Shown: positions 26,992 to 45,392 of the stretch, piece by piece
How positions within the stretch are numbered: position 1 is the stretch's first letter
Layout of the letters: each line of letters starts with the position of its first letter
Assembly (NCBI GenBank): GCA_012269595.1
Contig: JAAXJX010000005.1
Span: 143,472-207,471 of the forward strand
Length of the DNA: 64,000 nucleotides
Source: Planctomycetia bacterium
GTDB taxonomy: Bacteria > Planctomycetota > UBA8108 > UBA1146
Direction of reading: 5' to 3'
Translations under genes and position numbers: made by a program
The notes under the pieces: model-generated
Told to the model about the DNA's origin: nothing
Seen by the model: the letters and a program-made list of their open reading frames with translations, nothing else
The model's database searches: none

Positions 26992-28029
26992 CTGAATCAC
27001 GAACCCCACTTCTGGAGTCAGCCGGAGACTCTCAGCGCCCTCGAGGTTTGGATCGAGTCCGCACTGCAGGAAGATGCTGCAGGGGCGGATTTGACGGCCC
27101 CTGTTCTGCGGAATTCAGTCCTTCCTCATTCTGCGGGCGAAGAATCTGCTGCGGGCGAAGAATCTGCTACTGGCGAGAACACTGCAGTCGAGAATTCCGG
27201 GGAAGGGCGAAATCCATTGATCGCCAGGGGAGTGATTACGGCCAAGGCCCATGGGGTGATCTGCGGACTGGAAGCGGTCGAACAGGTACTGAAGCACCTC
27301 GATCCGGAACTTCGAACTGTGGAGACTCGAGCAGATGGATGCGTCGTGAAACCCGGTGAGGAGATCTTCGTCGCTACCGGGTTGGCCACTTCCCTGTTGG
27401 CTGGAGAAAGAACAGCCCTGAACATCTGCAGCCACTTGTCAGGGATTGCCACCGCCACGGCAAATCTGGTGCAGATTGCAGGGGGGGTGAAAATCTATGA
27501 CACCCGCAAGACACTGCCGGGAATTCGCAGATTCCAGAAGTATGCGGTGACGGTGGGTGGGGGCAACAACCATCGACATGACCTCGCAGACTTTCCGATG
27601 TTCAAGGAGAACCACCGGGCGATCCTTCAGAAATCCCGTCCTCAACTGGCAGGAAATCCCCTCGAGGAGATCCGCTGGATCAAGTCTGAACTGGCCCGTG
27701 AAGGATATTCGGGAACCATCAGTATTGAGGTGGAGGATGAAGCCAGCCTCAGAGCTTGTCTGGAAGAGGGAATCGAAGTGATTCTGGTCGACAACATTTC
27801 CCCTTCCACTCTGGCAAAATGGATCGATCGGGCCCGTCTCGATCAGATTCCAGTCGATGGTTCCCATTTGGAGGCGAGTGGAGGCATCGACGGGGATACC
27901 CTTGCGGAACATGCTTCCAGCGGGGTGGGAAGAATTTCCGTGGGAGCGATCACCCACTCCAGTAAAGTTCTCGATCTGAGTATGTCAGTGGAGTTGTTGT
28001 CTGAGGATTCGGGAGCCGGGGATGACTGA
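26992..28029 (+). CDS. nadC: Nicotinate-nucleotide pyrophosphorylase (carboxylating)
   Basis: GERTALNICSHLSGIATAT..., YDTRKTLPGIRRFQKYAVTVGGGNNHR. The conserved N-terminal helix ALQEDAAGADLT lies upstream of the first ATG/GTG/TTG (TTG 27091). The frame is open from 26974, and the CTG at 26992 has GGGAG 6 nt upstream. The exact start is uncertain. Confidence 0.85.
   Translation: MNHEPHFWSQPETLSALEVWIESALQEDAAGADLTAPVLRNSVLPHSAGEESAAGEESATGENTAVENSGEGRNPLIARGVITAKAHGVICGLEAVEQVLKHLDPELRTVETRADGCVVKPGEEIFVATGLATSLLAGERTALNICSHLSGIATATANLVQIAGGVKIYDTRKTLPGIRRFQKYAVTVGGGNNHRHDLADFPMFKENHRAILQKSRPQLAGNPLEEIRWIKSELAREGYSGTISIEVEDEASLRACLEEGIEVILVDNISPSTLAKWIDRARLDQIPVDGSHLEASGGIDGDTLAEHASSGVGRISVGAITHSSKVLDLSMSVELLSEDSGAGDD
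27133..27186 (+). repeat. In-frame 18-bp tandem repeat inside nadC (2 exact copies plus 1 degenerate)
   Basis: GCGGGCGAAGAATCTGCT x2, then ACTGGCGAGAACACTGCA. Encodes AGEESA-AGEESA-TGENTA. Confidence 0.9.
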
Positions 28030-28645
28030 TTCATCAAAAATCGGTGACGGTGCAGATACTTCAGCAGAAGAGATGTCCCATGTGGATTCTGAAGTGAAGA
28101 TCGCCCCGAAGAATACTGCCGGTATCGGTTTCTGGCGCAAGCTGTTGCAGTTGGATGACACTCCGGAATCGATCGCTCTCGGGGCTGCCGTCGGAATGTT
28201 CATCGCATGGACGCCAACAGTGGGAATTCAGATGGTCGTCGTGATCCTGCTGGCTCTGGTGATTCCCATGAATCGCCTGGCTGGATTGATCGTCATTTAT
28301 ATCTCGAACCCGCTGACGATGATCCCCATGTATTACCTGGAGTATCTCCTCGGATTGCAAGTCTTGGGGGATCAGGGAATGAACTACGATGAGTTTCTGG
28401 TGTTCTTCAACGAGATACTGGAAATCGCCAACCGGGAAACTTTCTGGACCGCCACAAAGGTCTTTCTCGAGCAGTTGGGTTATCCGGTGTTGAAAGCCCT
28501 GACTGTGGGTGGGACTCTCCTCGGAATTCTGACCGCAATCCCAACGTACCCCCTGACTTTAAAGTGGGTGAAGGGGTACCGTAATTCCCGCAGCAAAGCG
28601 AAAGCTGCAAACCCCCTCAAAACTGAGGCTGAAGGGAACGAATGA
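28022..28645 (+). CDS. DUF2062-family membrane protein
   Basis: FWRKLLQLDDTPESIALGAAVGMFIAWTPTVGIQMVVVILLALVIPMNRLAGLIVIYISNPLT. Overlaps the nadC stop by 8 nt. Confidence 0.7.
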   Translation: MTDSSKIGDGADTSAEEMSHVDSEVKIAPKNTAGIGFWRKLLQLDDTPESIALGAAVGMFIAWTPTVGIQMVVVILLALVIPMNRLAGLIVIYISNPLTMIPMYYLEYLLGLQVLGDQGMNYDEFLVFFNEILEIANRETFWTATKVFLEQLGYPVLKALTVGGTLLGILTAIPTYPLTLKWVKGYRNSRSKAKAANPLKTEAEGNE

Positions 28646-29154
28646 TGTCCATCAACGGAATGATCGATCTTCGACGGGTATCGATGCTGACCTTGTTTGC
28701 GATCACAATTCTTTGCAGTGGTTGCCAGCAGAAGGGAGCGGTTCCAATTCAGGCCAGGCCCGGAAAGCACCCTGTGGAAATTTCAGGCCACAAGGTTTGG
28801 TGCATGATTGCGGCAGACAATGCATCCCGCCAAAGGGGATTGATGTACCGATCGAGTCTTCCCGATGATGAGGGAATGCTCTTCATCTTTCCACAGGCGT
28901 CCTCCCAGGGCTTCTGGATGAAAAATTGCCTGATGGACATGGACATCGCCTACATCGATGATGCCGGCAAGATCGTCGATATCATCACCATGAAAGCTCC
29001 CAAACCCGGAGACGTCCTGTTTCCGCGATATCGCTCCAGTCAGCCGGTTCGTTACGCTCTCGAAACCAATCCTGGCTGGTTTGCCAAACGCGGTATTGAA
29101 GTCGGGGAAATGGTGCAGGGTTATCGCGGGCCGGGAAATCTGGTTCCGCGCTGA
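28642..29154 (+). CDS. DUF192-family protein, probable lipoprotein
   Basis: LFAITILCSGC lipobox-like. GLMYRSSLPDDEGMLFIF...GFWMKNCLMDMDIAYID...YALETNPGWF. ATGA overlap with the upstream stop. Confidence 0.7.
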   Translation: MMSINGMIDLRRVSMLTLFAITILCSGCQQKGAVPIQARPGKHPVEISGHKVWCMIAADNASRQRGLMYRSSLPDDEGMLFIFPQASSQGFWMKNCLMDMDIAYIDDAGKIVDIITMKAPKPGDVLFPRYRSSQPVRYALETNPGWFAKRGIEVGEMVQGYRGPGNLVPR

Positions 29155-29183
29155 TCGGGGATTCGACCACGAAAGGCGACGAG

Positions 29184-29600
29184 TTGATTCGCAATCCGGA
29201 TCAGACTCGCCAGTGGCAGATCGCTTCGATTCTCTTCTGGTTGATCCTTCTCGGGTTGCATGGACTCGTGATGGGGCCCCTTTGGTCCGACGGCGATCCT
29301 GATCTCAAACTGTTGCACGAGAGCCCGCGTGACCAATCGTGGGTGACGGTGGACTTGAGGACGGATCCGCTGGCTCGCTTGCAGTTGATCTCCGGAATCG
29401 GGCCCGGTTTGGCGGCCAAAATTGTCACCGCCCGGGTGGAAAGAGAGCGAGCGGGGCTTTCTGCCCTTCCCTGTCGTTGTACATTCATGCAGATCCCCGG
29501 GCTTCCTGACAGGGCCCTGATGGATGCCGGGCCGTGGGTCTTGCCCCTGCCCTGTCCCGGCTTTGAATGCCTTCACGACGATCAGGCAGGGGAGAGATAG
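29184..29600 (+). CDS. ComEA-like helix-hairpin-helix DNA-binding protein
   Basis: TM helix, then VDLRTDPLARLQLISGIGPGLAAKIVTARVE...MQIPGLPDRAL (two HhH units). TTG start. Confidence 0.55.
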   Translation: MIRNPDQTRQWQIASILFWLILLGLHGLVMGPLWSDGDPDLKLLHESPRDQSWVTVDLRTDPLARLQLISGIGPGLAAKIVTARVERERAGLSALPCRCTFMQIPGLPDRALMDAGPWVLPLPCPGFECLHDDQAGER

Positions 29601-29631
29601 CAATGAAAGGTGATCTCTTACCGGGTCAGCC

Positions 29632-31674
29632 ATGAAACAGTTTCGATATCCCGGATCACCCTTTGTGGTCCATTCCGAGTTTGAACCCGCCGGGGACCAA
29701 CCACAGGCCATCGATCGCCTTGCGGAGGGCATCGATTCCGGTCGAGAAGGTCAAATTCTTCTCGGTGTGACCGGGTCGGGAAAAACCTACATGATGGCAC
29801 ACCTTATCGCCCGGTCAGGTCGCCCGGCCATCATCATCTCCCATAACAAGACTCTGGCTGCCCAGCTCTACTCGGAGATGAAGCGGTTCCTCCCGGAGAA
29901 TGCGGTCGAGTACTTTGTTTCCTATTACGACTACTACCAACCGGAAGCCTACGTACCGTCGCGGGATATCTACATTGAGAAAGACGCAGCGGTCAACGCG
30001 GATCTGGACCGTTTGAGATTGGCCACCACCGCCAGTCTTCTGACACGGCCTGACGTGGTCATCATCTCTTCTGTCTCCTGCATCTATGGACTGGGATCGC
30101 CGGAAGCATTCAAGGGAAAGATGATTCACCTTGCCGAGGGGCAGGAGCTGGATCGGGAAGAACTGCTGCGCAAGCTCATCGACATTCAATACGAACGCAA
30201 TGATATCGAGCCTGCCAGGGGTACCTTCCGTGCACGTGGTGACATCGTTGAGATTCATGCAGCCAACGAAGAGGTGGCTTATCGTGTCGACCTGTTCGGC
30301 GATACCATCGAAAGAATTGAGGAATTCCATCCGGTCAGTGGGGTGATTCTCGGGCAGTTGGATCAACTGACCATCTTTCCGGCGAAGCATTATGTGATCA
30401 ATGAACGGGATCTGGATCGGGGGGTGGCAGGAATCCAGAAGGAACTCGGTGACAGGCTCAAAGAGTTGCGGGAGAACGGCAAAGATCTGGAAGCGCACCG
30501 TTTACAGTCAAGAACCCGTTACGATATCGAGCTCCTCAATGAGGCCGGATACTGTCCCGGAATCGAGAATTACGCCCGCCACTTCAACGGATTGGCTCCG
30601 GGTGAGCGGCCACCGAATCTGCTCGATTATTTCCCGGAGAACCACCTGACCCTGGTCGATGAATCCCATGTCACCCTTCCGCAGTTGGGCGGGATGCACG
30701 AGGGGGATCGCTCGCGAAAACAGACTCTCGTCGATCATGGATTTCGTCTCCCCAGTGCTCTGGACAACCGTCCGATGCGATTTGACGAATGGCGCAAGGT
30801 GACCGGGCAAACACTGTTTTTGTCTGCTACCCCGGGCCCCATCGAATTGGAAGCAACCCAGGGTGAAGTGGTGGAAGTGATCAACCGCCCGACCGGGCTT
30901 CTGGATCCGGTCGTGGAGGTGAAACCTGCCACAGGTCAGGTACCGGATCTTCTGGAAGAGATACGCGTCACAATTGCCGCGGGATTCCGGGTGTTGGTCA
31001 CAACCCTGACCAAACGAATGTCGGAAGACCTGAGTGACTTTTTTCAGGAAACTGAGATCAAGGCTCGTTACCTGCATTCGGAGATCGACACTCTGGAAAG
31101 GGTGGAGATCCTTCAGGAGTTGAGGAAGGGCGTCTACGATGTCCTTGTGGGAGTCAATCTACTGCGGGAAGGCCTCGACTTGCCTGAAGTGGCACTGGTG
31201 GCCATCATGGATGCAGACAAGGAAGGCTTTCTGCGAAGCGAGACTTCCCTGATCCAGACGATTGGACGTGCTGCCCGAAATGCCGAAGCACGGGTCATCC
31301 TTTATGGCGACGTCGTCACCGGATCGATGGAGCGGGCGATCGCCGAAACCAATCGCCGTCGAGGGATACAACAGGCGTTCAATGAAGAGCATGGAATCAC
31401 CCCGAAGACCGTGATTCGCGATCTGGGAACGACTGTTGAGGAAGAGGTGCGAGAGCGGATCGAGGAGGTTCAGGGGAACGTGGATCACGTTCCTGTCGCA
31501 GAACGGGAGGAGAAGGCCCGGCAACTTGAGAAAGAGATGCTGGAGGCGGCTCAGGCCCTCGATTTTGAAAAGGCGGCTCTCCTTCGTGACCAGGTGCAGC
31601 GATTACGTGGAGAAGAGACCGCACCTGCAACCCCGTCCCCGGCCAAGCGCCGGGGAAAAAGAAAAAGACACTGA
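29632..31674 (+). CDS. uvrB: Excinuclease ABC subunit B
   Basis: FEPAGDQPQAIDRLAEGI...LLGVTGSGKTYMMA (Walker A), YYDYYQPEAY, DESH, and the C-terminal UVR motif ALDFEKAALLRDQV. Confidence 0.97.
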   Translation: MKQFRYPGSPFVVHSEFEPAGDQPQAIDRLAEGIDSGREGQILLGVTGSGKTYMMAHLIARSGRPAIIISHNKTLAAQLYSEMKRFLPENAVEYFVSYYDYYQPEAYVPSRDIYIEKDAAVNADLDRLRLATTASLLTRPDVVIISSVSCIYGLGSPEAFKGKMIHLAEGQELDREELLRKLIDIQYERNDIEPARGTFRARGDIVEIHAANEEVAYRVDLFGDTIERIEEFHPVSGVILGQLDQLTIFPAKHYVINERDLDRGVAGIQKELGDRLKELRENGKDLEAHRLQSRTRYDIELLNEAGYCPGIENYARHFNGLAPGERPPNLLDYFPENHLTLVDESHVTLPQLGGMHEGDRSRKQTLVDHGFRLPSALDNRPMRFDEWRKVTGQTLFLSATPGPIELEATQGEVVEVINRPTGLLDPVVEVKPATGQVPDLLEEIRVTIAAGFRVLVTTLTKRMSEDLSDFFQETEIKARYLHSEIDTLERVEILQELRKGVYDVLVGVNLLREGLDLPEVALVAIMDADKEGFLRSETSLIQTIGRAARNAEARVILYGDVVTGSMERAIAETNRRRGIQQAFNEEHGITPKTVIRDLGTTVEEEVRERIEEVQGNVDHVPVAEREEKARQLEKEMLEAAQALDFEKAALLRDQVQRLRGEETAPATPSPAKRRGKRKRH

Positions 31675-31701
31675 ATACCCGCACCGAAAAGGGCGATTCT
31701 T

Positions 31702-34407
31702 TTGGCGCAAGGCACTCCTGAAATTCCTGGTTTCCAACCTCTTGAGATCCGTGGAGGCGGTGAATTGGGGATCTGGATCGAGGCTCGCCAGGTTCGGTTG
31801 GATCGCAAGGTTCTGCTGAAGGTTCTGCCTGCGGCAGAATCCCACCAGGAAGCCGATTTCCTTCGTGAAGTTCAGGGAATGGTTCAACTGGATGGGCGTG
31901 GTGTACTGAGGGTGATCGAAGAGGGGCAGGTCGGGAAAGCCCGTTTTGTCGCTTTGGATGAAGCAGGAGGCCTTCGCCCCGCTTCCGGAGATCTGGGGGA
32001 AGAAGAAGTTCCCCAACTGGCCAGTATGCTTCTTTCCCTCTACCTCGATGCTCACGAATTGGGTATGCGTCCCGGGAGAATCCCGGTCGAATCCCTGCGT
32101 CAATTACCGGCGGGAGGATTTGTCGTCGGTGAACTGGGCAGAGTGACGGTCATCGACAAGAAAGATGATTTCGAAACTTTACGAGCAGCCGCTTCCGAAA
32201 CCCTGAGGCGCTGGTGTCGATCCCTGGGTCTGGAAGTACAAGTCGAACCCTATCTGGACGACTTGCGGCAAACTGGAATCCCTTTGAGGCAACTGCTGAG
32301 TCAGTGGCAGTTGAAATCTCTGGCAGGGACTGGCACTACCCCCGCAATGGGAACATGGCCCGGGTCCCGAAGGTCTATGGTGTTGGGTCTCCTTTTGTTT
32401 GCAGCGATCCTCCTGATTTGGGTGAACTCTGCAGAAGATCCTGTAGGTGAGAGGGCCCCCTCGTCGATTTCGAATTTGTCGCAGGGAAGTCCGTCAGGGG
32501 GCGAAGCAGAAACCTCTTTGGAAAAAGACACGGCCCCATCGGGCTCTACCGTATCTCTCGAGGAGCGGTCCCGGCCTTCCGGGGAGAAGATGGAGAAGAA
32601 TCCCTCCGGGGAGGAGTCTGCAGAAGAGCAACCCGTGACACCTGTGCAGTGGGATCAGCTCATGCTTGTGGATCAACACCGGCGGGCGTGGGCCCAGTGG
32701 TGTGAGGAAGTTGATCCGGGTTCTCTGCCTGGAAGTGGCGCCCTTCTAACCACGCTTTCTCTTTCCGATTCAGATCGCTCCGCGATTGAGGGCGCACTTT
32801 TGTGGCAGGAATCACTGTTGTTTAAAAGGTCGCTGGTAGAGATGGAAAGGTATGTTTCCCAGTGCGAAGTCGAGCCCGCTGAAGCGCTGATGAATCAAGT
32901 CAGGGATCGACTGCCTGAGAGCCGGTTGTCGAAATTGGAAGACGCCCTGCTGGAGGCAAAACGGAAACTTGCCCTTCAGGAAGAGTTGTGGACCGCCTTG
33001 TTGAAGAGGGCACTGGAATCGATTCTTGAAACAGGGAGTTTTGAAGCGCTCAAGGCTGGAGCGAATCAGGGTTGGTTACCCGGCACCCGATTCGATTCAC
33101 GAAAGTCTGAGTTTATTGAAGAACTTTCAAGGATGGATTCTCTTCAACGAAGTGTGATTCGTTCTTTGCGTCAATCATTGGAGGTGAATGCCACCCTGAC
33201 GATTCCTCTGAAATCGGGCACATCTTTGAAAGCACGATTACTGGAGGTCGAATCAGCAAGACTGGTGGTCAAGCCTGTCGGAAGAAAAGAGCCGGTTGTT
33301 CTTACCTGGTCTGAAATCGACCCTCTGTGGAGTACGGATTGGCTGAAGTCAGCAGAGGGGGGGCCCGCTTCTTCCCCTGATCCGCGATTGATTCTTCTTT
33401 GGGGTGGATTGGAAGGAGTGGAGGCGGGCGAGGGTGTGCCGGGTCTTTCGCCGGTTTTGGAGGAAGCCATCGCCATCACCCGGGAGTGGCGACTGAATCT
33501 GGCATGGCAACAATTGGAAGCCCTTGCCGATTCCGGAGAGGACACCGGGTTGCGAGCGTCGGTGGAGGCACTGATACAGCGCTTTGGCAGAGAGCAGTGG
33601 TCTGATTCCCGGATGCGAACCCTTGAAGAATGGTGGATTTTGCCTCAGGTGGAAATCGGACCCACGGCCATCGGTCTGTATTCCGGTGCCGCGAAGGTGG
33701 AGTGGTCGCGACAGGAAAACCCATCCACATCGACTTCTGGGGAATCTCCCCGTTTTGAATTGGACCTGCTCTGGAATTCATCGGCAGGGATTGCTGCGGA
33801 TTGGACCGGGGGATCCAAGGGGGATTTGAAGGATGCCCGGGGCGGTGGCGTTCTGATTCGCGGTGGGATCAATCTCCAGTCGCGACTTCAATTTGAGGAG
33901 AGGGTTCGCCTGCTGATTGAAGGCGCGATCACGGTCAGGGAAAAGCCGAATCTCAACCTGATTCTCTGGACCGGAAGTGATGCCCCTCTTTGGTTCGGTC
34001 TGGGATTTCGTCCCCCTGAGAGATCTTCCTTTACTTCCGCAGGTGAAACGGTGCTTCTGCCCGCCCACGGGATCATGAAGGTTCCGGACATGAATTTGCC
34101 TGATTCCGATTCCGGAGAGGATCCGCTTCCTTTTCCACTGCCGGTCATGGGGCCTCGTTTGACCCCTGGCCAGTTACTGCAGGTCGAGCTGTTGGATACT
34201 CCGGAGGGATCCGAGATGTCTCTGAATGGTCGCAACATCCTGAGTTTTCCCAGAAATGCAAAGCCGGGAAAGGGGGGAATCGCCTTTCAGACCTTCGACA
34301 GTCCGGTCATGATTCGCGCCATTCGGGTGGAGGGGACCGTGGCCCTGAGCCAGTGGCGAGCCCTGCTATTGGAAAACGCCCAAAAAACCCTCTGGAACCG
34401 CCCTTAA
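31702..34407 (+). CDS. Single-pass membrane protein with an N-terminal degenerate Ser/Thr-kinase-like (pseudokinase) domain and a large extracytoplasmic region
   Basis: Gly-loop-like RGGGELG, VLLKVL (VAIK-like Lys) and FLREVQ (helix-C Glu) are kept. The catalytic-loop position reads AHELGMRPGRIPVESL, with no HRD Asp/Asn. TM segment MVLGLLLFAAILLIWV. The C-terminal GGIAFQTFDSPVMIRAIRVEG resembles ConA-like/DUF1080 ends. TTG start. Confidence 0.5.
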   Translation: MAQGTPEIPGFQPLEIRGGGELGIWIEARQVRLDRKVLLKVLPAAESHQEADFLREVQGMVQLDGRGVLRVIEEGQVGKARFVALDEAGGLRPASGDLGEEEVPQLASMLLSLYLDAHELGMRPGRIPVESLRQLPAGGFVVGELGRVTVIDKKDDFETLRAAASETLRRWCRSLGLEVQVEPYLDDLRQTGIPLRQLLSQWQLKSLAGTGTTPAMGTWPGSRRSMVLGLLLFAAILLIWVNSAEDPVGERAPSSISNLSQGSPSGGEAETSLEKDTAPSGSTVSLEERSRPSGEKMEKNPSGEESAEEQPVTPVQWDQLMLVDQHRRAWAQWCEEVDPGSLPGSGALLTTLSLSDSDRSAIEGALLWQESLLFKRSLVEMERYVSQCEVEPAEALMNQVRDRLPESRLSKLEDALLEAKRKLALQEELWTALLKRALESILETGSFEALKAGANQGWLPGTRFDSRKSEFIEELSRMDSLQRSVIRSLRQSLEVNATLTIPLKSGTSLKARLLEVESARLVVKPVGRKEPVVLTWSEIDPLWSTDWLKSAEGGPASSPDPRLILLWGGLEGVEAGEGVPGLSPVLEEAIAITREWRLNLAWQQLEALADSGEDTGLRASVEALIQRFGREQWSDSRMRTLEEWWILPQVEIGPTAIGLYSGAAKVEWSRQENPSTSTSGESPRFELDLLWNSSAGIAADWTGGSKGDLKDARGGGVLIRGGINLQSRLQFEERVRLLIEGAITVREKPNLNLILWTGSDAPLWFGLGFRPPERSSFTSAGETVLLPAHGIMKVPDMNLPDSDSGEDPLPFPLPVMGPRLTPGQLLQVELLDTPEGSEMSLNGRNILSFPRNAKPGKGGIAFQTFDSPVMIRAIRVEGTVALSQWRALLLENAQKTLWNRP

Positions 34408-34661
34408 ACCCCATTTAAGGCCTTCGCCAGACTTGCCCCGCAACTTCCCCTCATCTAAACTTTGAGGAGTGCTCCACTTGCGGTGAGGGCACCGCCAGAT
34501 CTGCCAATGTTCAGGGATTCTGCACGAGCCCTTCGGGGAAACATGGTGCCGGAACCAGGAACCGGAGATTTGGATTTCAGAGAGTCGATTCGGTGTCGGG
34601 ATGGCATTGGGATCCTCTCTTTCCACTGTGCTGAAAAGTGTTCCGGGTCCGGTGAACAAGC

Positions 34662-34700
34662 CGGATCAACATCAACGGATCAACACCAACGGATCAACAC
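34662..34700 (+). repeat. Three tandem CGGATCAACA units (14-nt period) in the 5' leader, abutting the SD
   Basis: CGGATCAACAT-CAA-CGGATCAACAC-CAA-CGGATCAACAC-C-AAGGAG-N5-ATG (34713). Confidence 0.9.
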
Positions 34701-34712
34701 CAAGGAGTTCTG

Positions 34713-36680
34713 ATGTCACTGTCTCTCCATTCAACCTTCCTCCGCGGTTGTCTTCTGATTTGCCTCTGCTTCCTTTGCTCTGCGGACTTTATGGCAGAAA
34801 CCCATGCGTCCAGTCCTGTCGGTTCTGCGAGCGAGGTCGACGAGTTCTCTGCACTCAAGGTCGGTGACCGGGTCAGAGTGGTTCTTCGCCGGGGTGGAAG
34901 ATATGAAGGAGAGATCGTCGAGAAGAGTGGTGACTCCATCTCGATCAAACACAAGTTTGGTACGGCAAAGGTCTCACGTCAGGATCTCCTCGAATGGGAG
35001 CGATTCAAAACCCTCGCCGAGCAATATGAAGAGCGAGCCGCTGATTGCAAGACCGCCAATGACTGGTGTGATCTGGGCGATTGGGCAGTCGAACAGGGTG
35101 AGATCGAGCTCAGTCGTCAAGCCTTCCGTGAGGCGACCAAACTCCAATCCAACAATGCCCGTGCGCGCAAGGCTTTGGGTGAGGTCGAACACGACGGAAA
35201 GTGGATGCCACTCGAGGAAGCGATGGCGGCCCAGGGTAAACAGCTCTACGGAGGAGAATGGCTGACACCAGACGAGATCGCTGAGCGTGAAGAGGCCGAT
35301 TCTGCTGCACGCAGGGCCGAATCCCTCAAGGGCAGGGATGCCTATGTGGTCGAACTCCGGGGCAGGGCGTGGGCCGAGGTTGAGCCGATTGTGACGACCA
35401 ATTACGTCGTCTATTGCAACTCCACCGAGGAGAACGCCCGCTACTACGCGGATGTGATGGAGGCCCTCTACAAGGCCTACGATAAAGTCTTTATCGAGAA
35501 ATTCTGGCCCCGCAAGTTTCGCAAGAGCCCTCGCAGTGATGTTTACATCCATGCAAACCATCAGCAGTTCATGGACTGGACTGGCAATGGCCCTGGTATC
35601 GGCGGATTTTATAATCTGTTGCGTCAGGACGTGACCGGATACCACGGATCCTTCGGTTCCACCGGCAGTACGGAAGAAGTCCTCGCGCACGAGGGAACCC
35701 ACCAGTTCGAAGGCATGATCTTCAAGGACCTGCGCTTCCTGCCGATCTGGTTTATTGAGGGCCTGGCAGTCTACTTTGGTGATGGTTCGAAGATTGGCCG
35801 CCGCAAAGTGGAGATTAACCAGATTCCCCGTGACAGATTGGTTGGCTTGCAGCAGGCGATCGAGGATGGCTCCTACTGCGATCTTCGCAAGTTGTTGAGA
35901 GTCCCACAGCAGCGGTTCAGTGGATTCTTTTACGGTCATGCCTGGGGAATCCTCTACTGGTGCATCTACGGAAATCAGGCTCCGGTTAAAGCCTGGACCA
36001 CCAAAGAGAATACCGGCGGCAAGGTTCTGGAGGATTGGCTCTACCACGTTCAGGAAATGGACGGGATGTGCAACTATGAAAAAGAGGCACAGTTCTTTGA
36101 GGGCCTGATCACGAAGCACACCGGTCTGTCCATCGATGAGTGGGAAGAGGAATACAAGAACTGGATCCTCAAGTTGCCCGTGGAGGAAATCGGTCGCAAG
36201 CGTGGCCGGGAGTTCTCCAGTGAAGCGATTAAATTGGAGATCACCAAGCCTGCGGGATGGCGCTGGGAAAAATCCGGATCGCTGTACTCGGATGAGGTTG
36301 TCGCTTCTACCAGTACCGGCTCCAAGAAACGCAGGGCCTCCACCTACGCCTGGCCCAATTGGCAGCATGCCGAATTGAGTGAGGATTACGCCCGTTCACT
36401 GGTGGGCAATATCTTCCGCGATGTGAAATATGTTGACGAGCTTCAAGAGCGTCAGATGGGAGGAAATCCCATGATGGTGGCGGTCTTTGATGGCAAGCGT
36501 GTCATAGGCCTCGGTGAAAACAACACTCCCCAGTTGGGCGAAGAGCGTCGCTTTGCGGTCGGCTTCTTTGGCTCTCCTGACAAGATTTACGGAAACGTCT
36601 TGGAGTGTGAGTCCTCTGACTGGGAAAGTGCCGAGAAGTTCTTCGAAGAGTACACTGAAAAATTCAAATACACGGGCTGA
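34713..36680 (+). CDS. DUF1570-family putative zinc metallopeptidase (paralog 1)
   Basis: Signal peptide. The beta-module LKVGDRVRVVLRRGGRYEGEIVEKSGDSISIK. VLAHEGTHQF (HExxH) and WFIEGLAVYFGDGSK. Confidence 0.75.
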   Translation: MSLSLHSTFLRGCLLICLCFLCSADFMAETHASSPVGSASEVDEFSALKVGDRVRVVLRRGGRYEGEIVEKSGDSISIKHKFGTAKVSRQDLLEWERFKTLAEQYEERAADCKTANDWCDLGDWAVEQGEIELSRQAFREATKLQSNNARARKALGEVEHDGKWMPLEEAMAAQGKQLYGGEWLTPDEIAEREEADSAARRAESLKGRDAYVVELRGRAWAEVEPIVTTNYVVYCNSTEENARYYADVMEALYKAYDKVFIEKFWPRKFRKSPRSDVYIHANHQQFMDWTGNGPGIGGFYNLLRQDVTGYHGSFGSTGSTEEVLAHEGTHQFEGMIFKDLRFLPIWFIEGLAVYFGDGSKIGRRKVEINQIPRDRLVGLQQAIEDGSYCDLRKLLRVPQQRFSGFFYGHAWGILYWCIYGNQAPVKAWTTKENTGGKVLEDWLYHVQEMDGMCNYEKEAQFFEGLITKHTGLSIDEWEEEYKNWILKLPVEEIGRKRGREFSSEAIKLEITKPAGWRWEKSGSLYSDEVVASTSTGSKKRRASTYAWPNWQHAELSEDYARSLVGNIFRDVKYVDELQERQMGGNPMMVAVFDGKRVIGLGENNTPQLGEERRFAVGFFGSPDKIYGNVLECESSDWESAEKFFEEYTEKFKYTG

Positions 36681-36696
36681 GTCCCCCTGGGAAACC

Positions 36697-38823
36697 ATGA
36701 TGACCACTTCAAAATATTTTGTCTTTTACACGATCTTGACGACCCTCTTCCTCGGAGGACTGGGTGATCTGTTCGCCGGGAGTTCGACAGAGTCAGAAAA
36801 CTTCCTGACACTGCAACTGGGCGAGCGAGTGATCGTCGTTCTCAAGGATGGCAGTGAAGTGGTCGGAGAACTTGTGGAGGAGACTGAGACGGAGATTTCC
36901 GTCAAAAGTGTCTTTGGTGTAACCACCATCGAAAGTACCCGGATCGAAGAAGTGATCCGTGGTGAAGAAGTGGATCGCCGCGAATTCCGCAAACGGGAAA
37001 AAAGTGCCAATCGTCGTGGGTCTGCCAAGGCTTTTCTCGATCTTGCCCGCTGGGCGGAGCAGAGGGGACTTTCTGCCCAGTCGATGAGCGCTTATCAAAG
37101 GGTCCTTGAACTGGACCCTGAAAATGAGCCCGCAAGAATCGCACTGGGTTGGGGACAAACTTCTGACGGAGTCTGGAAAAAACCTTCAGAGGTGAAGGAG
37201 TTGATCGCCAAAGGCTGGAATCTGTCGGGTGGAAAGTTGTCTGCACCAGGCGGAACGGGAGAATCCACCGGAACTCCCGGAAAACCTCCTGTCCAGAAAC
37301 CCAAACCCAGGATTCCAGAAGCATCTCCCGCACCCGGCAGTACGGCTGAAGCACTCTCTCCTGAGCAGAAGAAGCGCCGAGAGAAAGAGTTGGAAAAACG
37401 CCGAGAGAACCGTGAGAAATTTGAAGAGAAGAAGCGTAAAGAGTACGAAGGTGTACCCTGGCCCAATCGCAGCATCATCAAGTCCAGAAATTGGCAGATT
37501 GAGTGCAACAGCACTCCGGAAGTCTCCCGAACCTATCAATGGATTATGGAAGCGCTCTCTTCAACATTGGGCAAGTTTTTCAAAGCCAAGGATGTCCGTC
37601 GTCAAAAACCGGTGGTCAAGATTTACCGCAATCATGATGAATTCATGCTCAAGACGGGTATGGGACCGGGGGTTGGGGGATTCTATCAACCTTCCAGTCA
37701 AAATGTCGTCGCCTATCACGGGACCTTCGGCCTGACCGGAACTACCTATACTGTTCTGGCCCATGAGGGAACGCATGCATTCCAGGGCAAGAAGATGGCC
37801 AATATGGGGAATTATCCCAACTGGTACATCGAAGGGATGGCCGTTTACTTCGGAGATGGCTCCAAGCTGGATTACAAAAAGAAAAAGATCGTCAGTGGAT
37901 TGATTCCGAGAGATCGTCTCTTCCACATTCAGGACAAGATCCGTGAAAACAAGCACACTCCCCTGTCCAAGTTGGGGGGGCTTGCACGCAACCGTTTCAG
38001 CGGTACCCACTATGCGGATTCGTGGGCAGTTTGGCACTACCTGATCAATGGCCCCGAGAGCAAAAAGGGTCAACGCTTCCTTGCAGAATATTGGATCATG
38101 GGAGAGAAGCGCAGAGTCGCACAACGCCAGTTCAACGAATTGGCTGAAAAATACTTCGGTAGCGTGGCCGAGATGGAAAAGGATTGGCAAGCCTACGTTC
38201 TCTCCCTCAAGCCTGATCCTGCAGGTGAGATCGATGGTGATGTCTTCACGTCCATGGATTTCATGTTCAAAATCACACGACCCAACTCAGAGTGGGATTT
38301 CATTCTGGAAGACATCGAGGATCGCGATCTGGTACTTCTGCGCAAGGGTGACACTCGTAATGAGATCAGGGTGCGTCTGCTCTCAAAATCTGAGGAGACC
38401 CAGACTCCGGAAGATTGGGTTCAGGCAGACCTGTTGCCTGCATTGCGAAAAAAATACGATAACGTGATTCAACTGGAGGGTGAGTTGGGTGGGCTGAAAG
38501 CCTTCGTCTTCGAGTACGAAGATCGAGCTCCGGAGCCACCAAAGAAGGACGAAGAGAAAGATGCGGAGAAGTCGGGGGACACCAAAACCCGGAATCTCGC
38601 TCTACAGGATCCTCCCGACGGCGAGAAATCGGGAGACAAGAAGGAAGAAGTCGCCGAGCGCGAGCCCTTCAAACCTCTCAAGCACCGCTCATACGTCCTT
38701 GTCGGAGTCAGTAACGCTTACGAGTTAAGAGGATCTTTCGAGCTTCCTGAGTTCAACTCACATTTGCCGGATCTCGATTGGGTCTCCTTCTCATTTGAGA
38801 AGATTCTTCAAAACCGTTGGTAG
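36697..38823 (+). CDS. DUF1570-family putative zinc metallopeptidase (paralog 2) with a Lys/Glu-rich insert and acidic C-terminal region
   Basis: The ATG at 36697 (MMTTSKYFVFYTILTTLFLGGL) lies 17 nt after the paralog-1 stop. LQLGERVIVVLKDGSEVVGELVEETETEISVK, VLAHEGTHAF, WYIEGMAVYFGDGSK. Confidence 0.75.
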   Translation: MMTTSKYFVFYTILTTLFLGGLGDLFAGSSTESENFLTLQLGERVIVVLKDGSEVVGELVEETETEISVKSVFGVTTIESTRIEEVIRGEEVDRREFRKREKSANRRGSAKAFLDLARWAEQRGLSAQSMSAYQRVLELDPENEPARIALGWGQTSDGVWKKPSEVKELIAKGWNLSGGKLSAPGGTGESTGTPGKPPVQKPKPRIPEASPAPGSTAEALSPEQKKRREKELEKRRENREKFEEKKRKEYEGVPWPNRSIIKSRNWQIECNSTPEVSRTYQWIMEALSSTLGKFFKAKDVRRQKPVVKIYRNHDEFMLKTGMGPGVGGFYQPSSQNVVAYHGTFGLTGTTYTVLAHEGTHAFQGKKMANMGNYPNWYIEGMAVYFGDGSKLDYKKKKIVSGLIPRDRLFHIQDKIRENKHTPLSKLGGLARNRFSGTHYADSWAVWHYLINGPESKKGQRFLAEYWIMGEKRRVAQRQFNELAEKYFGSVAEMEKDWQAYVLSLKPDPAGEIDGDVFTSMDFMFKITRPNSEWDFILEDIEDRDLVLLRKGDTRNEIRVRLLSKSEETQTPEDWVQADLLPALRKKYDNVIQLEGELGGLKAFVFEYEDRAPEPPKKDEEKDAEKSGDTKTRNLALQDPPDGEKSGDKKEEVAEREPFKPLKHRSYVLVGVSNAYELRGSFELPEFNSHLPDLDWVSFSFEKILQNRW

Positions 38824-38839
38824 TGGATCCGTATCCAAA

Positions 38840-39520
38840 TCATTGACCGGGCGACAATTTGAGCGTCACTCCGCCCGGAGCATGGGTGAGGTCTTTGATC
38901 TCGAGGGGTAAAAATCCCAGGTCGCTGACTTGTTGGAGAATCCTGTCGACGATTTTTTTGGCGGCCTCTTCCTCGATAACTTCGCCAGGTTGCTGCGTGT
39001 AGATGAACCCCCAGCTGTACTCATCCAGACGAACGCTTTCGACAACTTTGTTGAGAATCCGGAATTCTCCGGTCATGGTGAAGTTGAGAAAGCGACCCCG
39101 TTTCAGATAATCCTGATCTTCTGCATCTTCAGGGATACCGAGGCTGACCCTGAGGGAGAGAGATCCATCGGGAGAACTCTGACAATGAAAGCCGCTTCCC
39201 GCAGACAGTTTCCCGGATTCGATTCCTTCTTCGATCCACCGTTGAATCGTCAGATTCCATGAGTCCGAATCAGCAGTGACTTCGAGGTCTCCGAGGTACC
39301 ACTCTTCCGGGATTTGGACAGGCTCAGCCAATGTTTCGATGGGGGGCATCGGCAGTGGTTCGCGAGGGAGTCCCCCTGAAGTCACCATCCACAGGGCAAT
39401 CAGTAAACCCACCGCCAGAGTCAGGATCAGTACAGTGGCACAGCCGATCAACTTGAAGAGCGGGCGCGAGGTTTGTCCCTCAGGTTGAGGTTCGGGTTTG
39501 GGTGTCGATTCGGAGCTCAT
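38840..39520 (-). CDS. Single-pass membrane protein, unknown function
   Basis: The ATG at 39520 is preceded by GGAAGGAAG. MSSESTPKPEPQPEG..., then TM segment LIGCATVLILTLAVGLLIALWMV. The ORF is open to 39598. Confidence 0.45.
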   Translation of the reverse strand: MSSESTPKPEPQPEGQTSRPLFKLIGCATVLILTLAVGLLIALWMVTSGGLPREPLPMPPIETLAEPVQIPEEWYLGDLEVTADSDSWNLTIQRWIEEGIESGKLSAGSGFHCQSSPDGSLSLRVSLGIPEDAEDQDYLKRGRFLNFTMTGEFRILNKVVESVRLDEYSWGFIYTQQPGEVIEEEAAKKIVDRILQQVSDLGFLPLEIKDLTHAPGGVTLKLSPGQ

Positions 39521-39666
39521 CTGGATCTTCTTCCTTCCGAGGTGGATATCATGTCCTGCGGGTTCTTCCAGAGGTGGAAATCTCGGAATATGGGCCATAA
39601 TTATCGGTCAATTCCCTCCCAGAATTAGGCAGAAATCGATATAAGCAGAGGTAAGACCGGTGGGGT

Positions 39667-42600
39667 TTGTCAGATTTCTCCAGGACCGCCGGTTCCTTTC
39701 GTGACCAAAGTTGGATCTCGGGGGACTCGATGCAGAATGGTGACAGCAACAATCGCTTCCAGGGACGCCTTGCGGGGCTTGTCGACCCGGCAGATTCTCA
39801 TGTCGTAGATGACAAGCTTGCCCCCTTGCTCAGAGACTTTCTCGAGCAATACGACGCTGTTCTGGATGAGCTGGATGATGAAAATGTTCTGCGTCGGCTT
39901 GCGGGCGATCTGCTGGCAACTTTCAACCTTTTTCTCGATCGTCAGAAAGACCAGATTCTGGTCAGGATTACTTCCGAGAAAAAAAGCGGCAGGAAGTCAG
40001 CAAGTACCTTCATCGATGTGGTCTGCAAAGACCAACCCTTTGTTGTCGATACGATCCAACTGATTCTGGAAACCCACTCATTGGCTGTGGTCAGTAAGCA
40101 CTCGGCCAGTGCACCTGTCATCAGAAACCAGGACGGGCGAGTTCGGGCCATCGATGGAACCGATTCCGGTGCTGTCGACGAGATTATTTGTCACTTCGAA
40201 GTGGCGCAATCTTCCGACGATGAGCTCTTGGCGACTCTTCAGGCTGAAGTTCAAATGAGGCTTGAGCAGGCTTTTGTCATCGTTCGCGATTACAAACGCA
40301 TGAAAGCGGTCATCCAGGATTCGATTCGCAACATCCGCAAAGTCTCCAGCAAAAAATCCCAGCAGAACCTGGTTGAGACCCGTGAACTTCTGGAGTGGTT
40401 GTTGTTGGACAACTTCGTCTTTTTCGGGGTCGAGAGGTGGGGGGAAAACGCTCATTCAGTGGATTCTCTTCAATTGGGAATCGAATCTGCAGAGTCGAGT
40501 GACAGGGAAATCCTGCAGCAGGGGCAGGCAACGCTCCAATCGGAAGACTGCCCCAAGGGTAGACTGGTTGCTTTCAAGGGCTTTGAGGAATCTCTCGTTC
40601 ACAGAAAGGGAAAGCTGGATCACTTTCTCCTTCTGGAGGAGGGACCGGAGGGAGAATTCCAGTTTGTTCATATCTGGGGTTTATTCACCTTCAAGGCTCT
40701 TCAGGTCCCCGGAGTCCGAATCCCCTTTGTACGTGAAAAGCTGGAAGAGGTGGTCTCGCAGCACCCATTCCCCAAGGGAGGATTGCGGTACAAGTCTTAT
40801 GAAACCGCATTCAACTCAATCCCTGTCGAGTTCCTCTTTGAGGCTGGAAATGGGGAAATCGAGGGTGTGATTCAGGCGATTCACTACGTTGAGAGATCGA
40901 GGGAAATCCACGGTCACATGGTGATGGGGGCTGATCGCCGGCGCGGGTTGTACTTTCTCATCACGCCGCGCGAAGGGTATTCGGAAGAGCAACGATCGGG
41001 AATTGAGAAAATCCTGGTCGAATCAATGGGAGCGAACTATTCCGATTCTAGGTTCCACATCGGAAAACATGGAACGGTGTTGTTGTCGTTTTTCCTGACT
41101 GCGACCGAGGAACTTGCCGATGTAGAGGAAACGGTGATCCAAGAGCAGGTGAAGTTGTTGACCGGAACATGGTCAGAGCGATTTCATCGATATCTGGAAT
41201 CGGTTTCCGAGGAGGACTCTGACGCACTCTTCATGAGATACAGGGATGCGTTTCCTCAGGAGTATCAGGTACTTCACAGTCCTCATGAAGCCTTTGTGGA
41301 CGCAACCTGCCTTGAAAGTGTCCGGTCTGACAGTGGGCCTGAAATGGAGTTCAATCTCTTCAGAACAGAAGACGATGTTGCTAACAACTCCGCAAGAATC
41401 AGGCTTTACCAACGGAAAAATCAACTCCTGTCCACGACGTTGCCGATCCTGGATAATTTTGGGATCAGTATTGTTGATCAAAATGCATACCGAGTTCGCC
41501 CCAGTTCAGGGGATGTCTTCACCATTGATACATTCCAGGTTCATGGAATCTATGACGACCAGCATCCACTGATTCGAAACAAGACGGAGTTCCTCTCCGC
41601 TCTCAGAAGCATCTTTCTGGGGGGCGCTAGCAGCGACGGACTCGACCGCCTGGTGATTGAAACCGGGCTGTGTCATCAGGATGTGGAATTGATCCGCAAT
41701 CAGTTGCATTACATGCATCAGTTGGGATTGTCGACCACGGTTGCGTTTGCTTCCGATACGCTGTGCCAACATCAGGAGATTACCAAAAGCCTCCTTCAGT
41801 ACTATTCATTGAGGTTTAACCCCGCATTGGATCTGGATCTCAAGAGCAGGGAACAGCAAGCGCAGGAAATCTACGAAGATCTGCAGAGAACACTGATCGA
41901 GGTCCGGTCCAGTGCCCAAGACCAGTTCCTCAGAAAGATTATTGAAGTCTTTCGGGCGACTCTCAGAACCACACGGTATCTGGAAACTGATCCTGCACTT
42001 CAAGCCTACAAATACCAATCAGGGGCCCTTCCCCATGGCCCACAGCCCCGACCTTGGCGCGAGATCTATGTCCATCATCCTGAAGTGGAGGGGATCCACT
42101 TGCGGGGAGGGCCTCTCGCACGGGGTGGACTGCGCTGGTCCGATCGGGTGACCGATTTCAGGACTGAGGTCTACGGTCTGCAGCAGACTCAAATGGTCAA
42201 AAACGTGCTGATTGTTCCTGTGGGGGCCAAGGGTGGATTTGTTCTGCGAAAGCCCGCCGGAAATCGTCAGGATCGGCGTGAACAGGCGGACCGGGTCTAC
42301 AGGCTTTTCATCAAGGGACTTCTGAAAATCACCGACAACGTGATCGACGGAAAGGTCGAGCATCCCGAGAACATCATCTGCTGGGACGGCGAAGATCCCT
42401 ATCTCGTGGTTGCAGCAGACAAGGGAACTGCTCACCTCTCTGATACTGCCAACTCCATCTCTGAAGAGCATGGTTTCTGGCTGGATGACGCTTTTGCCTC
42501 CGGAGGCAAGCACGGGTACGACCACAAGGAATTGGCAATTACTGCACGTGGAGCATGGGAAGAAGCGAAGATTCACTTCCGCAGATTGGGAATCCGTGAA

Positions 42601-44511: not shown

Positions 44512-44522
44512 GAGGCTCGGTT

Positions 44523-45392
44523 TTGACCCAGCATTCCGGAGCAGTTTCGAGAGTTTTGTGGCTGACACTGGGGGCCAACCTCACCGTCGCAGTTTGCAAG
44601 CTCATCTTCGGATTCATGAGTGGGTTGGCTTCTGTGATCGCAGACGGCTATCACTCGCTTCTGGATGCCTCGAGTAACCTGGTTGGCCTTGTTGGAATCC
44701 GAATCTCAGCCGCTCCTCCTGATGACGATCATCCCTATGGACATCAGAAATTCGAGATCTTCTCCTCGATGGGAATCGCCCTGTTGCTGTTTGTAGCCGC
44801 ATACAACATCGTCGGTGAGGCGATGGAACGCTGGCAATCCCGCGAGGTGCATGAAGCGCTTGCATGGGGATACCCTTTGCTTGGCATGACACTGGTCGTG
44901 ACCTATCTGTTGCAACGGTGGCAGCGAAAGAAGGCCCGTGAGCTTTCAAGCGCTATATTGCATGCCGACAGTGAACACACCCGGTCCGATTTTCTTGCCA
45001 CTTTGGGAGCACTCATGGCAGTCATTGCACTGGATCTGGGCTATCCGGAAGTGGATGCCATCGTGGCACTTTGTATTGGTCTTGCGATAGCCCGTTCCGG
45101 AGTCCTGATCGCCTTGCAATCAGCGGGCATTCTTGCAGACAAGGCCCCTCTGCCAGCCTCCGAGATCATCCGCAGGGCGGAGGGATTCCCGGAGGTTCGC
45201 CTGGTCAGGGATGTTCGGAGTCGGGGATTTGGCAGTGGGATCTTTGTCGACCTGAGCATTCAACTGGATTCGAATCTCAGCCTAGAATCCGCCCATGAGA
45301 TCGCTCACAAGGTCGAGGATCGGTTGAGGGCTGATATCCCCGGGATCCACGATGTCGTGATCCACGTGGAGCCTTATGGCTCAAGTAAATGA
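44523..45392 (+). CDS. Cation diffusion facilitator (CDF) family metal efflux transporter
   Basis: GGAGG 7 nt before TTG 44523. ADGYHSLLDASSNLVGLVGI...DDDHPYGHQKFEIFSS...HADSEHTRSD. Confidence 0.85.
   Translation: MTQHSGAVSRVLWLTLGANLTVAVCKLIFGFMSGLASVIADGYHSLLDASSNLVGLVGIRISAAPPDDDHPYGHQKFEIFSSMGIALLLFVAAYNIVGEAMERWQSREVHEALAWGYPLLGMTLVVTYLLQRWQRKKARELSSAILHADSEHTRSDFLATLGALMAVIALDLGYPEVDAIVALCIGLAIARSGVLIALQSAGILADKAPLPASEIIRRAEGFPEVRLVRDVRSRGFGSGIFVDLSIQLDSNLSLESAHEIAHKVEDRLRADIPGIHDVVIHVEPYGSSK

Follow-up and report, generated by a model that had tools for sequence, protein, structure and literature searches.

The 64,000-nucleotide stretch of a Planctomycetia bacterium genome analysed here (contig JAAXJX010000005.1, positions 143,472 to 207,471 of the forward strand; hereafter the window) carries three consecutive genes on the same strand, designated G1, G2 and G3, of which the first encodes a membrane receptor with a decayed protein kinase domain and the other two encode DUF1570 proteins that are predicted to be secreted zinc endopeptidases. 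Comparison with related loci suggests that these genes represent a conserved Planctomycetota envelope gene set in which the receptor is coupled to a G2-type peptidase within one pathway, a reading to which we assign a probability of roughly 0.55. A first-pass annotation of the same DNA had given gene coordinates and a 16-bp spacer separating G2 from G3, all of which proved correct; it had also proposed a sensor–protease module whose members share a ligand or dock with one another. The sensor–protease part of that proposal remains plausible, but the shared ligand or docking is without support.

The case for coupling begins with gene order. Among the 37 G2-type genes with readable upstream sequence, 35 are immediately preceded by a G1-family gene, but no G3-type singleton and no short-type gene (about 500 aa) has one in that position. 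The nearest public relatives of the window are marine Planctomycetota metagenome-assembled genomes with identities of up to 99%, and throughout the clade with pseudokinase receptors the block DUF192-uvrB-G1-G2-G3-...-GDH (GDH, glutamate dehydrogenase) is collinear. In a handful of distant loci (L006/L053, L041, L042, L043, L051 and L060; L numbers denote retrieved loci) uvrB, DUF192 and GDH are all absent within 8 kb, yet a lone G2-type peptidase gene still follows directly on the G1-family gene. The intergenic gaps between the two are only 10–60 bp in L040, L043 and L051, and loci retrieved using G1 as the starting point show the same trio. Synteny in related genomes had been named in the first-pass annotation as a check on its proposal, and the adjacency of G1-family and G2-type genes indeed holds even where all other neighbours differ.

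Domain architecture of the peptidases and the receptor

G2 and G3 align by BLASTP over 559 residues (E = 2e-65, 31% identity), in an alignment that takes in the N-terminal module discussed below, a tetratricopeptide repeat (TPR) segment, the string LAHEGTH and the motif [FY]IEG[LM]AVYFGDGSK. This bears out their earlier description as tandem DUF1570 HExxH paralogues sharing these four elements, and the module strings quoted for them are accurate. G2 matches the DUF1570 model (PF07607) with 23.0 bits, the cut-off being 22, and all 24 aligned family members match DUF1570 (best E = 9e-10), five of them also matching Peptidase_MA_2. H326, E327, H330 and E349 are invariant in the 24 sequences and constitute the HExxH+E signature of the gluzincins (clan MA), taken here as HExxH followed about 18–30 residues downstream by a Glu acting as third zinc ligand. 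On this sequence evidence G2 and G3 are predicted to be gluzincin metallopeptidases that bind zinc and are catalytically active.

The elements of G2 follow one another in the order signal peptide, barrel, TPR, long helix, peptidase domain and PsbP-like domain. An AlphaFold2 model built from the 24-sequence alignment has a mean predicted local distance difference test score (pLDDT) of 86.8 and places two hairpins and the long helix (residues 186–216) between the TPR-like helices and the peptidase domain. When the modelled catalytic domain was compared with the PDB using Foldseek, the M9 peptidase domains of the collagenases ColT (E = 7e-9) and ColH (E = 7e-7) were retrieved, whilst the C-terminal domain retrieved PsbP (2xb3, E = 2e-5) together with Mog1, Tsi3, DcrB and LpqN; Pfam matches to PsbP_2 (one member, E = 1e-7) and PsbP (three members) are also found among the 24. 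The TPR assignment comes from a family profile that matches consensus TPR proteins in the PDB with E-values of 1e-4 to 1e-5 for each single repeat stretch, and from Pfam TPR matches in nine of the 24 members (TPR_11, E = 1e-3 in G2). Searched against PDB sequences, the same profile returned TPR proteins only, with nothing for the peptidase domain, the barrel or the C-terminal domain.

G3 shares this architecture but was previously described as having gained a Lys/Glu-rich insert and an acidic tail. Alignment corrects both points: the Lys/Glu-rich segment aligns with the long helix of G2, the true insert being the Pro/Gly-rich linker that precedes it, and the acidic segment is an internal loop insertion in the PsbP-like domain, the true end of the protein being ...NRW. 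Both features are common to G3-type orthologues and are therefore not recent gains in this genome. The NRW terminus is kept in all G3-type proteins, and because it is also found in singletons in distant genomes, G2 and G3 are ancient subtypes. A recent tandem duplication was considered and dismissed, since proteins of the G3 type (with ...RRW or NRW ends) occur as singletons in distant genomes. Two further candidates were likewise rejected: a GTG start for G3 at 36514, as the ATG at 36697 fits both the signal peptide and the starts of the orthologues, and lipoprotein status for G2, which has no Cys in a lipobox context and whose orthologues lack the Cys concerned.

G1 gave no match in Pfam or NCBIfam, the Pkinase model PF00069 included. 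It begins with a pseudokinase remnant, followed by a transmembrane helix and an acidic, Ser-rich linker. Since a pair of Arg residues (RR) precedes the helix and the acidic linker follows it, the N-terminus is probably cytoplasmic, which would place in the periplasm the remaining portion, comprising in order a helical region, a barrel, a second helical region and a ConA-like jelly roll. When G1 is aligned with intact kinases encoded at syntenic positions, the alignment covers the N-lobe, in which the GxGxxG loop (GGGELG), the beta3 Lys (VLLKV) and the alphaC Glu (FLRE) are retained. The catalytic loop, however, reads PGRIPVES where the intact kinases have HRDIKPEN (consensus HRDxKxxN), DFG is replaced by ELG, the activation segment and helices alphaF to alphaI are missing and most of the C-lobe is deleted. 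G1 thus lacks HRDxKxxN, DFG and a score at the Pfam gathering threshold, the features by which a Hanks-type kinase is recognised, whereas kinase homology combined with loss of catalytic motifs is what defines a pseudokinase. Judged from these alignments, therefore, G1 is a pseudokinase, in agreement with its earlier description as such. The remnant is the best-conserved part of G1 within the clade (54% mean pairwise identity versus 16–40% elsewhere in the protein), and for this reason it presumably still has some role.

The intact state can be seen in L006/L053, L042, L043 and L051, in which the N-terminus of the G1-family protein is complete (the partners in L041 and L060 end at a contig edge). 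The syntenic orthologues there are intact Pkinase receptors, with E-values of 1e-44 to 1e-55 and the motifs HRDIKPxN, DxG and VAIK. Intermediates are found in L038 (4783-7275) and L040 (4208-6505), where the Pkinase match (E about 1e-7 to 1e-8) extends over profile positions 1–200, the C-lobe is partly kept and HRD has been lost. The intact kinases of L042, L043 and L051 also have an extra segment of ~60–100 aa ahead of the kinase domain that is conserved among the three and absent from the pseudokinase clade.

At the other end of G1, the jelly roll gives Foldseek matches with E-values of about 1e-4 to 3u1x and 3s5q (DUF1080-type ‘putative glycosyl hydrolases’), to 8v31 (a 3-keto-2-hydroxy-glucal hydratase) and to the galectin-like 1oq1. 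The ectodomain model on which these matches are based was built from 16 sequences and has a pLDDT of 80.9 overall and of about 93 at the barrel; a search with a nine-sequence ectodomain alignment recovered only proteins already found.

A small barrel in receptor and peptidases

In the G2 model, the N-terminal module forms strands at residues 53–58, 63–72, 75–80, 83–88 and 92–97, with a 3-10 turn at residues 89–91. The corresponding strands of G1 lie at 498–503, 508–516, 520–525 and 532–535 and are followed by a 3-10 turn and a short last strand (181–186, 191–199, 203–208, 215–218, turn and 222 in the numbering of the ectodomain model). Both would thus qualify as SH3-like small barrels, a fold whose five strands run antiparallel and whose final strand is preceded by a 3-10 turn, and a barrel of the SH3 or Tudor kind is what the first-pass annotation had expected structure prediction to reveal. 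Foldseek aligns the G2 barrel with Hfq (1kq2_H) over 48 columns with a root-mean-square deviation of 1.5 Å and a target-normalised TM-score (TMt) of 0.68, deviations from Hfq structures overall ranging from 1.5 to 2.2 Å. The likeness to Hfq is at the level of the fold only: the LSM model scores 13.5 bits (E = 0.059) against a cut-off of 23.4, which places the barrel outside the Sm/LSM family. No Pfam family is matched at threshold, the only matches being scattered weak ones to PUA_4, LSM, RimP-SH3 and ProQ-C.

The module is conserved across 88 distinct DUF1570 sequences. In the G1 family the barrel is kept in all full-length members, those with intact kinases included, with the exception of L038 and L040, in which the region is unaligned. 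Although BLASTP comparison of G1 with G2 and G3 detects no signal at the module, profile–profile comparison does. For this, a profile of the DUF1570 N-terminal module (the 88 sequences) and a profile of the full-length G1 family (34 sequences, 969 columns) were compared using hhalign. The DUF1570 module profile finds a single good match in the full G1-family profile, at G1 residues 493–527 (P = 5e-4), the next match having P = 0.39, and in the reciprocal direction the G1 module matches the full DUF1570 profile at G2 residues 56–82 (P = 4.8e-4). Comparison of module with module gives P = 1.1e-6 and a probability of 91%. Four unrelated neighbouring families, used as controls, gave P = 0.12–0.44 and scores of 10–14, against 28–30 for the match between G1 and DUF1570. 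When the 2479 open reading frames (ORFs) of all fetched loci were searched with a hidden Markov model (HMM) of the DUF1570 module, the top five non-self matches were G1-family proteins, all at the same site, and the two best non-self matches of the G1-module HMM were DUF1570 N-termini. Significant profile similarity and a matching order of the predicted strands, the level at which the two models were compared, together mark the barrel as a module that is very probably homologous in G1, G2 and G3, as the first-pass annotation had supposed in describing a related copy in G1. The positions of the modules and of the other features of the three genes are given in Table 1.

Table 1. Positions in the window of G1, G2, G3, their predicted domains and the adjoining uvrB gene
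Feature	Position	Strand	Details
uvrB	29632-31674		27 bp between end of uvrB and start of G1 (31702)
G1	31702..34407	+	901 aa, ORF; single-pass membrane receptor
G1 degenerate Hanks-type kinase domain	31702..32346	+	residues 1-215; alignment with intact syntenic kinases
G1 transmembrane helix	32365..32427	+	residues about 222-242; read from sequence, positive-inside rule
G1 barrel	33178..33321	+	residues 493-540; profile match and model
G1 ConA-like jelly roll, with disordered acidic insert	33667..34356	+	residues about 656-885; Foldseek
G1-G2 spacer	34408..34712	.	305 bp; contains ribosome-binding site (RBS) AAGGAG
G2	34713..36680	+	655 aa, ORF; secreted DUF1570 gluzincin (predicted)
G2 barrel	34854..35006	+	residues 48-98; model pLDDT 89-91
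G2 TPR-like helices	35013..35174	+	residues 101-154; about 1.5 repeats
G2 peptidase domain	35403..36173	+	residues 231-487
G2 H326-E327-x-x-H330	35688-35702	+	putative third zinc ligand E349 at 35757-35759
G2 PsbP/Mog1-like alpha/beta domain	36195..36662	+	residues 495-650; Foldseek
G3	36697..38823	+	708 aa, ORF; secreted DUF1570 gluzincin (predicted), G3 type, conserved ...NRW C-terminus
G3 barrel	36811..36960	+	residues 39-88; aligned with G2 barrel
G3 Pro/Gly-rich linker insert, G3-type	37228..37353	+	residues about 178-219; alignment
G3 HExxH	37762..37776	+	H356-H360; alignment
G3 acidic loop insert in PsbP-like domain, G3-type	38518..38670	+	residues about 608-658; alignment

Transcription, neighbouring genes and the proposed coupling of receptor and peptidase

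Metatranscriptome contigs from a marine population about 95% identical to the window offer a view of transcription across the locus, with contig depth serving as a crude measure. Depth is 14–20 over G2 and G3, about 5 over uvrB and 0–2 over G1, a difference of about tenfold between the peptidase genes and G1. A contig of 1976 nt bridges the junction of G2 and G3 and another, corresponding to positions 31393-32022, bridges that of uvrB and G1; none bridges G1 and G2. These data indicate that G2 and G3 form one unit that is expressed well above G1. As uvrB ends immediately upstream of G1 and a contig spans the junction, G1 may be transcribed by read-through from uvrB and not together with G2 and G3. 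Co-expression had been put forward in the first-pass annotation as a further check on the three-gene module: judged by contig depth, it would hold for G2 and G3 but not extend evenly to G1.

The spacer between G1 and G2 contained no consensus promoter or terminator in our scan, and an Rfam scan of positions 28000–45000 gave no match. Directly ahead of the RBS and start codon of G2, the sequence GGATCAACA occurs three times at 14-bp spacing (34663–34699). These repeats were considered as a conserved regulator site but dismissed, as a single copy is found in the 98%-identical locus L008 and none in more distant relatives.

Downstream of G3, and on the opposite strand, lies a 252-aa ORF (38840-39598) with one predicted transmembrane segment that is kept across the clade (phmmer E-values down to about 1e-6 to 1e-10) and gave no match in a Pfam search. 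It separates G3 from the gene at 39667-44511 (+) for a large NAD-specific glutamate dehydrogenase of 1614 aa, which has the Bac_GDH architecture in orthologous loci and is the conserved gene that closes the block on its right-hand side. In other lineages the DUF1570 genes have different neighbours. In L002 (12491-16399), L004 (12394-16079) and L005 (10068-12927) a HisKA/HATPase sensor kinase and an OmpR-type response regulator follow directly after the DUF1570 gene or genes, with a TPR protein accompanying them in two of the three; the L005 case lacks a G1-family gene. In L044 (2948-5005 and 7055-10828, minus strand) the G2-type gene adjoins one whose 1257-aa product combines CotH-kinase, lamin-tail and PKD domains.

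How might a receptor and a peptidase of this type work together? In the scheme that we favour, the receptor G1 would be followed immediately downstream by one or two Sec-exported DUF1570 zinc endopeptidases, G2 and G3, in which the barrel, TPR and PsbP-like domains flank the active site; their most likely task is to bring in substrates or partners, or to hold them in place, in the periplasm or envelope. G1 would present its helical region, barrel and ConA-like lectin jelly roll to the periplasm, where what it most likely senses is a glycan or protein of the envelope or the extracellular space, and G1 would be coupled to the peptidase as regulator, tether or substrate. In deep-branching relatives the receptor would signal through its intact Ser/Thr kinase. 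In the marine clade to which the window belongs, the kinase has decayed to a strongly conserved but truncated N-lobe and, for that reason, the output of G1 would have to be non-catalytic, such as scaffolding or nucleotide binding.

Several observations weigh against this scheme. Collinearity of the entire block from DUF192 to GDH makes adjacency within the clade uninformative, so that the argument from gene order rests on about six distant loci, and two loci, L005 and L044, have a G2-type gene without a G1-family gene, the upstream positions being occupied by genes for a ceramidase and a TonB-dependent receptor, respectively. Within the window, the 305-bp gap and the very different contig depths argue for separate transcription of G1 and G2/G3. 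The DUF1570 score of G3, at 21.2 bits, falls slightly below the Pfam cut-off. Finally, the barrels of G1 and the DUF1570 proteins share only Gly and hydrophobic core positions, the invariant GR..W residues of G1 itself being missing from the peptidase barrels, and a barrel is also found in DUF1570 proteins that have no G1-family neighbour (the G3-type singletons and the short ~500-aa type). The barrel is therefore not specific to the pairing; it characterises this DUF1570 lineage in general.

An alternative is that receptor and peptidases have independent functions, with the barrel acting as a generic small domain by which periplasmic proteins of Planctomycetota are spaced or anchored to the envelope, G2 and G3 as general secreted proteases that use, for example, marine protein as nutrient, and G1 as an unrelated sensor that is a stable neighbour by chance. 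The presence of the barrel in all DUF1570 subtypes irrespective of neighbours, the restriction of its resemblance to core residues, the far stronger transcription of G2 and G3, the collagenase-like catalytic fold and the collinear block are all consistent with this. We nevertheless consider it possible but doubtful, as among the subtypes only G2-type genes show the adjacency, the pairing outlasts complete turnover of the other neighbours at operon-size gaps, and the histidine kinases and response regulators that adjoin peptidase genes in other lineages again suggest a link to signalling.

A stronger version of coupling takes the genes to encode an undescribed unit in which a transmembrane Ser/Thr kinase, reduced in the window to an N-lobe-only pseudokinase that is still strongly constrained, and a dedicated periplasmic gluzincin dock via their matching barrels, so that proteolysis would be governed by ligand binding at the lectin-like ectodomain or would itself govern the receptor, with G3 serving as an anciently diverged subunit or back-up peptidase. 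This we regard as unlikely. The step from a shared barrel to a common ligand or mutual docking, which the first-pass annotation had taken, is not borne out, given that the same barrel is present in DUF1570 proteins without a G1-family neighbour and that only core positions are common to the two sides.

Docking also features in a third possibility, namely that the G2-type peptidase cleaves the G1 ectodomain in the manner of a site-1 protease, ligand binding by the ConA-like domain gating a cleavage that releases or remodels the (pseudo)kinase, and the barrels docking heterotypically. Enzyme and substrate would meet in the same compartment, given that G2 and G3 have predicted signal peptides and that the N-terminus of G1 is predicted to lie inside the cell; in addition, the G1–G2 pair is conserved, both partners have the barrel fold and the long low-complexity linkers of G1 would be accessible to a protease. 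We judge it distinctly improbable, however: the barrel is not limited to peptidases that are paired with a receptor, a conserved cleavage motif was not found and the role of G3 is left unexplained.

That the barrel resemblance is itself due to chance or convergence, the ‘L-x-DG-x-x-h-x-G-x-h’ beta-hairpin pattern being a common one, is very improbable: BLASTP gives no signal, identity in the profile alignment is 15–17%, the full-length hhalign probability is only 31% and the aligned core takes in strands 1–3 only, but the unbiased best match falls at the same site in both directions, the controls score far lower, the top HMM matches are reciprocal and the strands of both models follow the same order, the last one being preceded by a 3-10 turn.

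The value of these observations lies in annotation and hypothesis generation; they do not overturn current understanding. DUF1570 is a sizeable family that is characteristic of Planctomycetota and has essentially no literature. Out of 1.84 billion representatives, the architecture described here alone is matched with E ≤ 1e-30 by 354 clusters at 50% identity. The family can now be given a testable description, that of a putative secreted four-domain gluzincin with a predicted collagenase-like catalytic core. It also has a specific and evolutionarily persistent partner, a receptor Ser/Thr kinase, which points to where substrate and regulation could be sought. The passage from an intact kinase, by way of the two intermediates, to an N-lobe that is truncated yet highly conserved provides a clean natural example of the origin of a bacterial pseudokinase and could help to reveal what such remnants still do.

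Relation to known systems

Gluzincins, receptor Ser/Thr kinases, pseudokinases and SH3-like barrels are all known kinds, and nothing categorically new is present here. The literature that we found mentions DUF1570 only in passing, with no description of the full architecture or of the pairing with a kinase. As defined in Pfam, DUF1570 shares with G2 and G3 the HExxH motif and a downstream Glu within ‘EG[LM]AVYFGDG’, and the family belongs, like Peptidase_MA_2, to the gluzincin (MA) superfamily. The model spans only ~100 residues around the active site, however, whereas the full architecture described here takes in barrel, TPR, long helix, peptidase domain and PsbP-like domain.

The catalytic domain of G2 finds its best structural matches in the clostridial M9 collagenases ColT (4ar9) and ColH (4ar1), which, like G2 and G3 as predicted here, are multidomain secreted enzymes of the gluzincin type. 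Sequence identity is only 11%, however, and a single one of the 24 members matches Peptidase_M9 (E = 0.095), so that the proteins fall outside that family and resemble it in fold only. In M9 enzymes the spacing from HExxH to the Glu ligand is about 28 residues. In G2 it is 19, and G2 has no collagen-binding or PKD domain.

The barrel resembles Hfq/Sm and other SH3-like barrels in being a bent, five-stranded structure of about 48 residues, but differs from Hfq and Sm proteins in its predicted extracytoplasmic location, after a signal peptide. On the receptor side, the orthologues in L006, L042, L043 and L051 resemble Hanks-type receptor kinases in that they are Pkinase receptors with one transmembrane helix and a large ectodomain. 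G1 itself differs from other bacterial pseudokinases in that a truncated remnant is left in place of the complete fold. Its ectodomain, with the barrel between helical regions and the ConA-like domain at the end, is unlike PASTA or any other described sensor. The jelly rolls of the DUF1080 and 3-keto-disaccharide hydrolase-like proteins are the best structural matches to its C-terminal domain, a likeness at the level of the fold only, with no Pfam match.

A closer parallel to the way in which G2 and G3 may work is provided by Escherichia coli BepA, a periplasmic M48 zinc protease of the HExxH type that is fused to a TPR domain by which it is positioned on its envelope partners. BepA belongs to a different family, has its TPR at the C-terminus and has neither the barrel, the PsbP-like domain nor a kinase partner, but as a periplasmic zinc protease with a TPR it is the closest analogue of G2 and G3 in its way of working.

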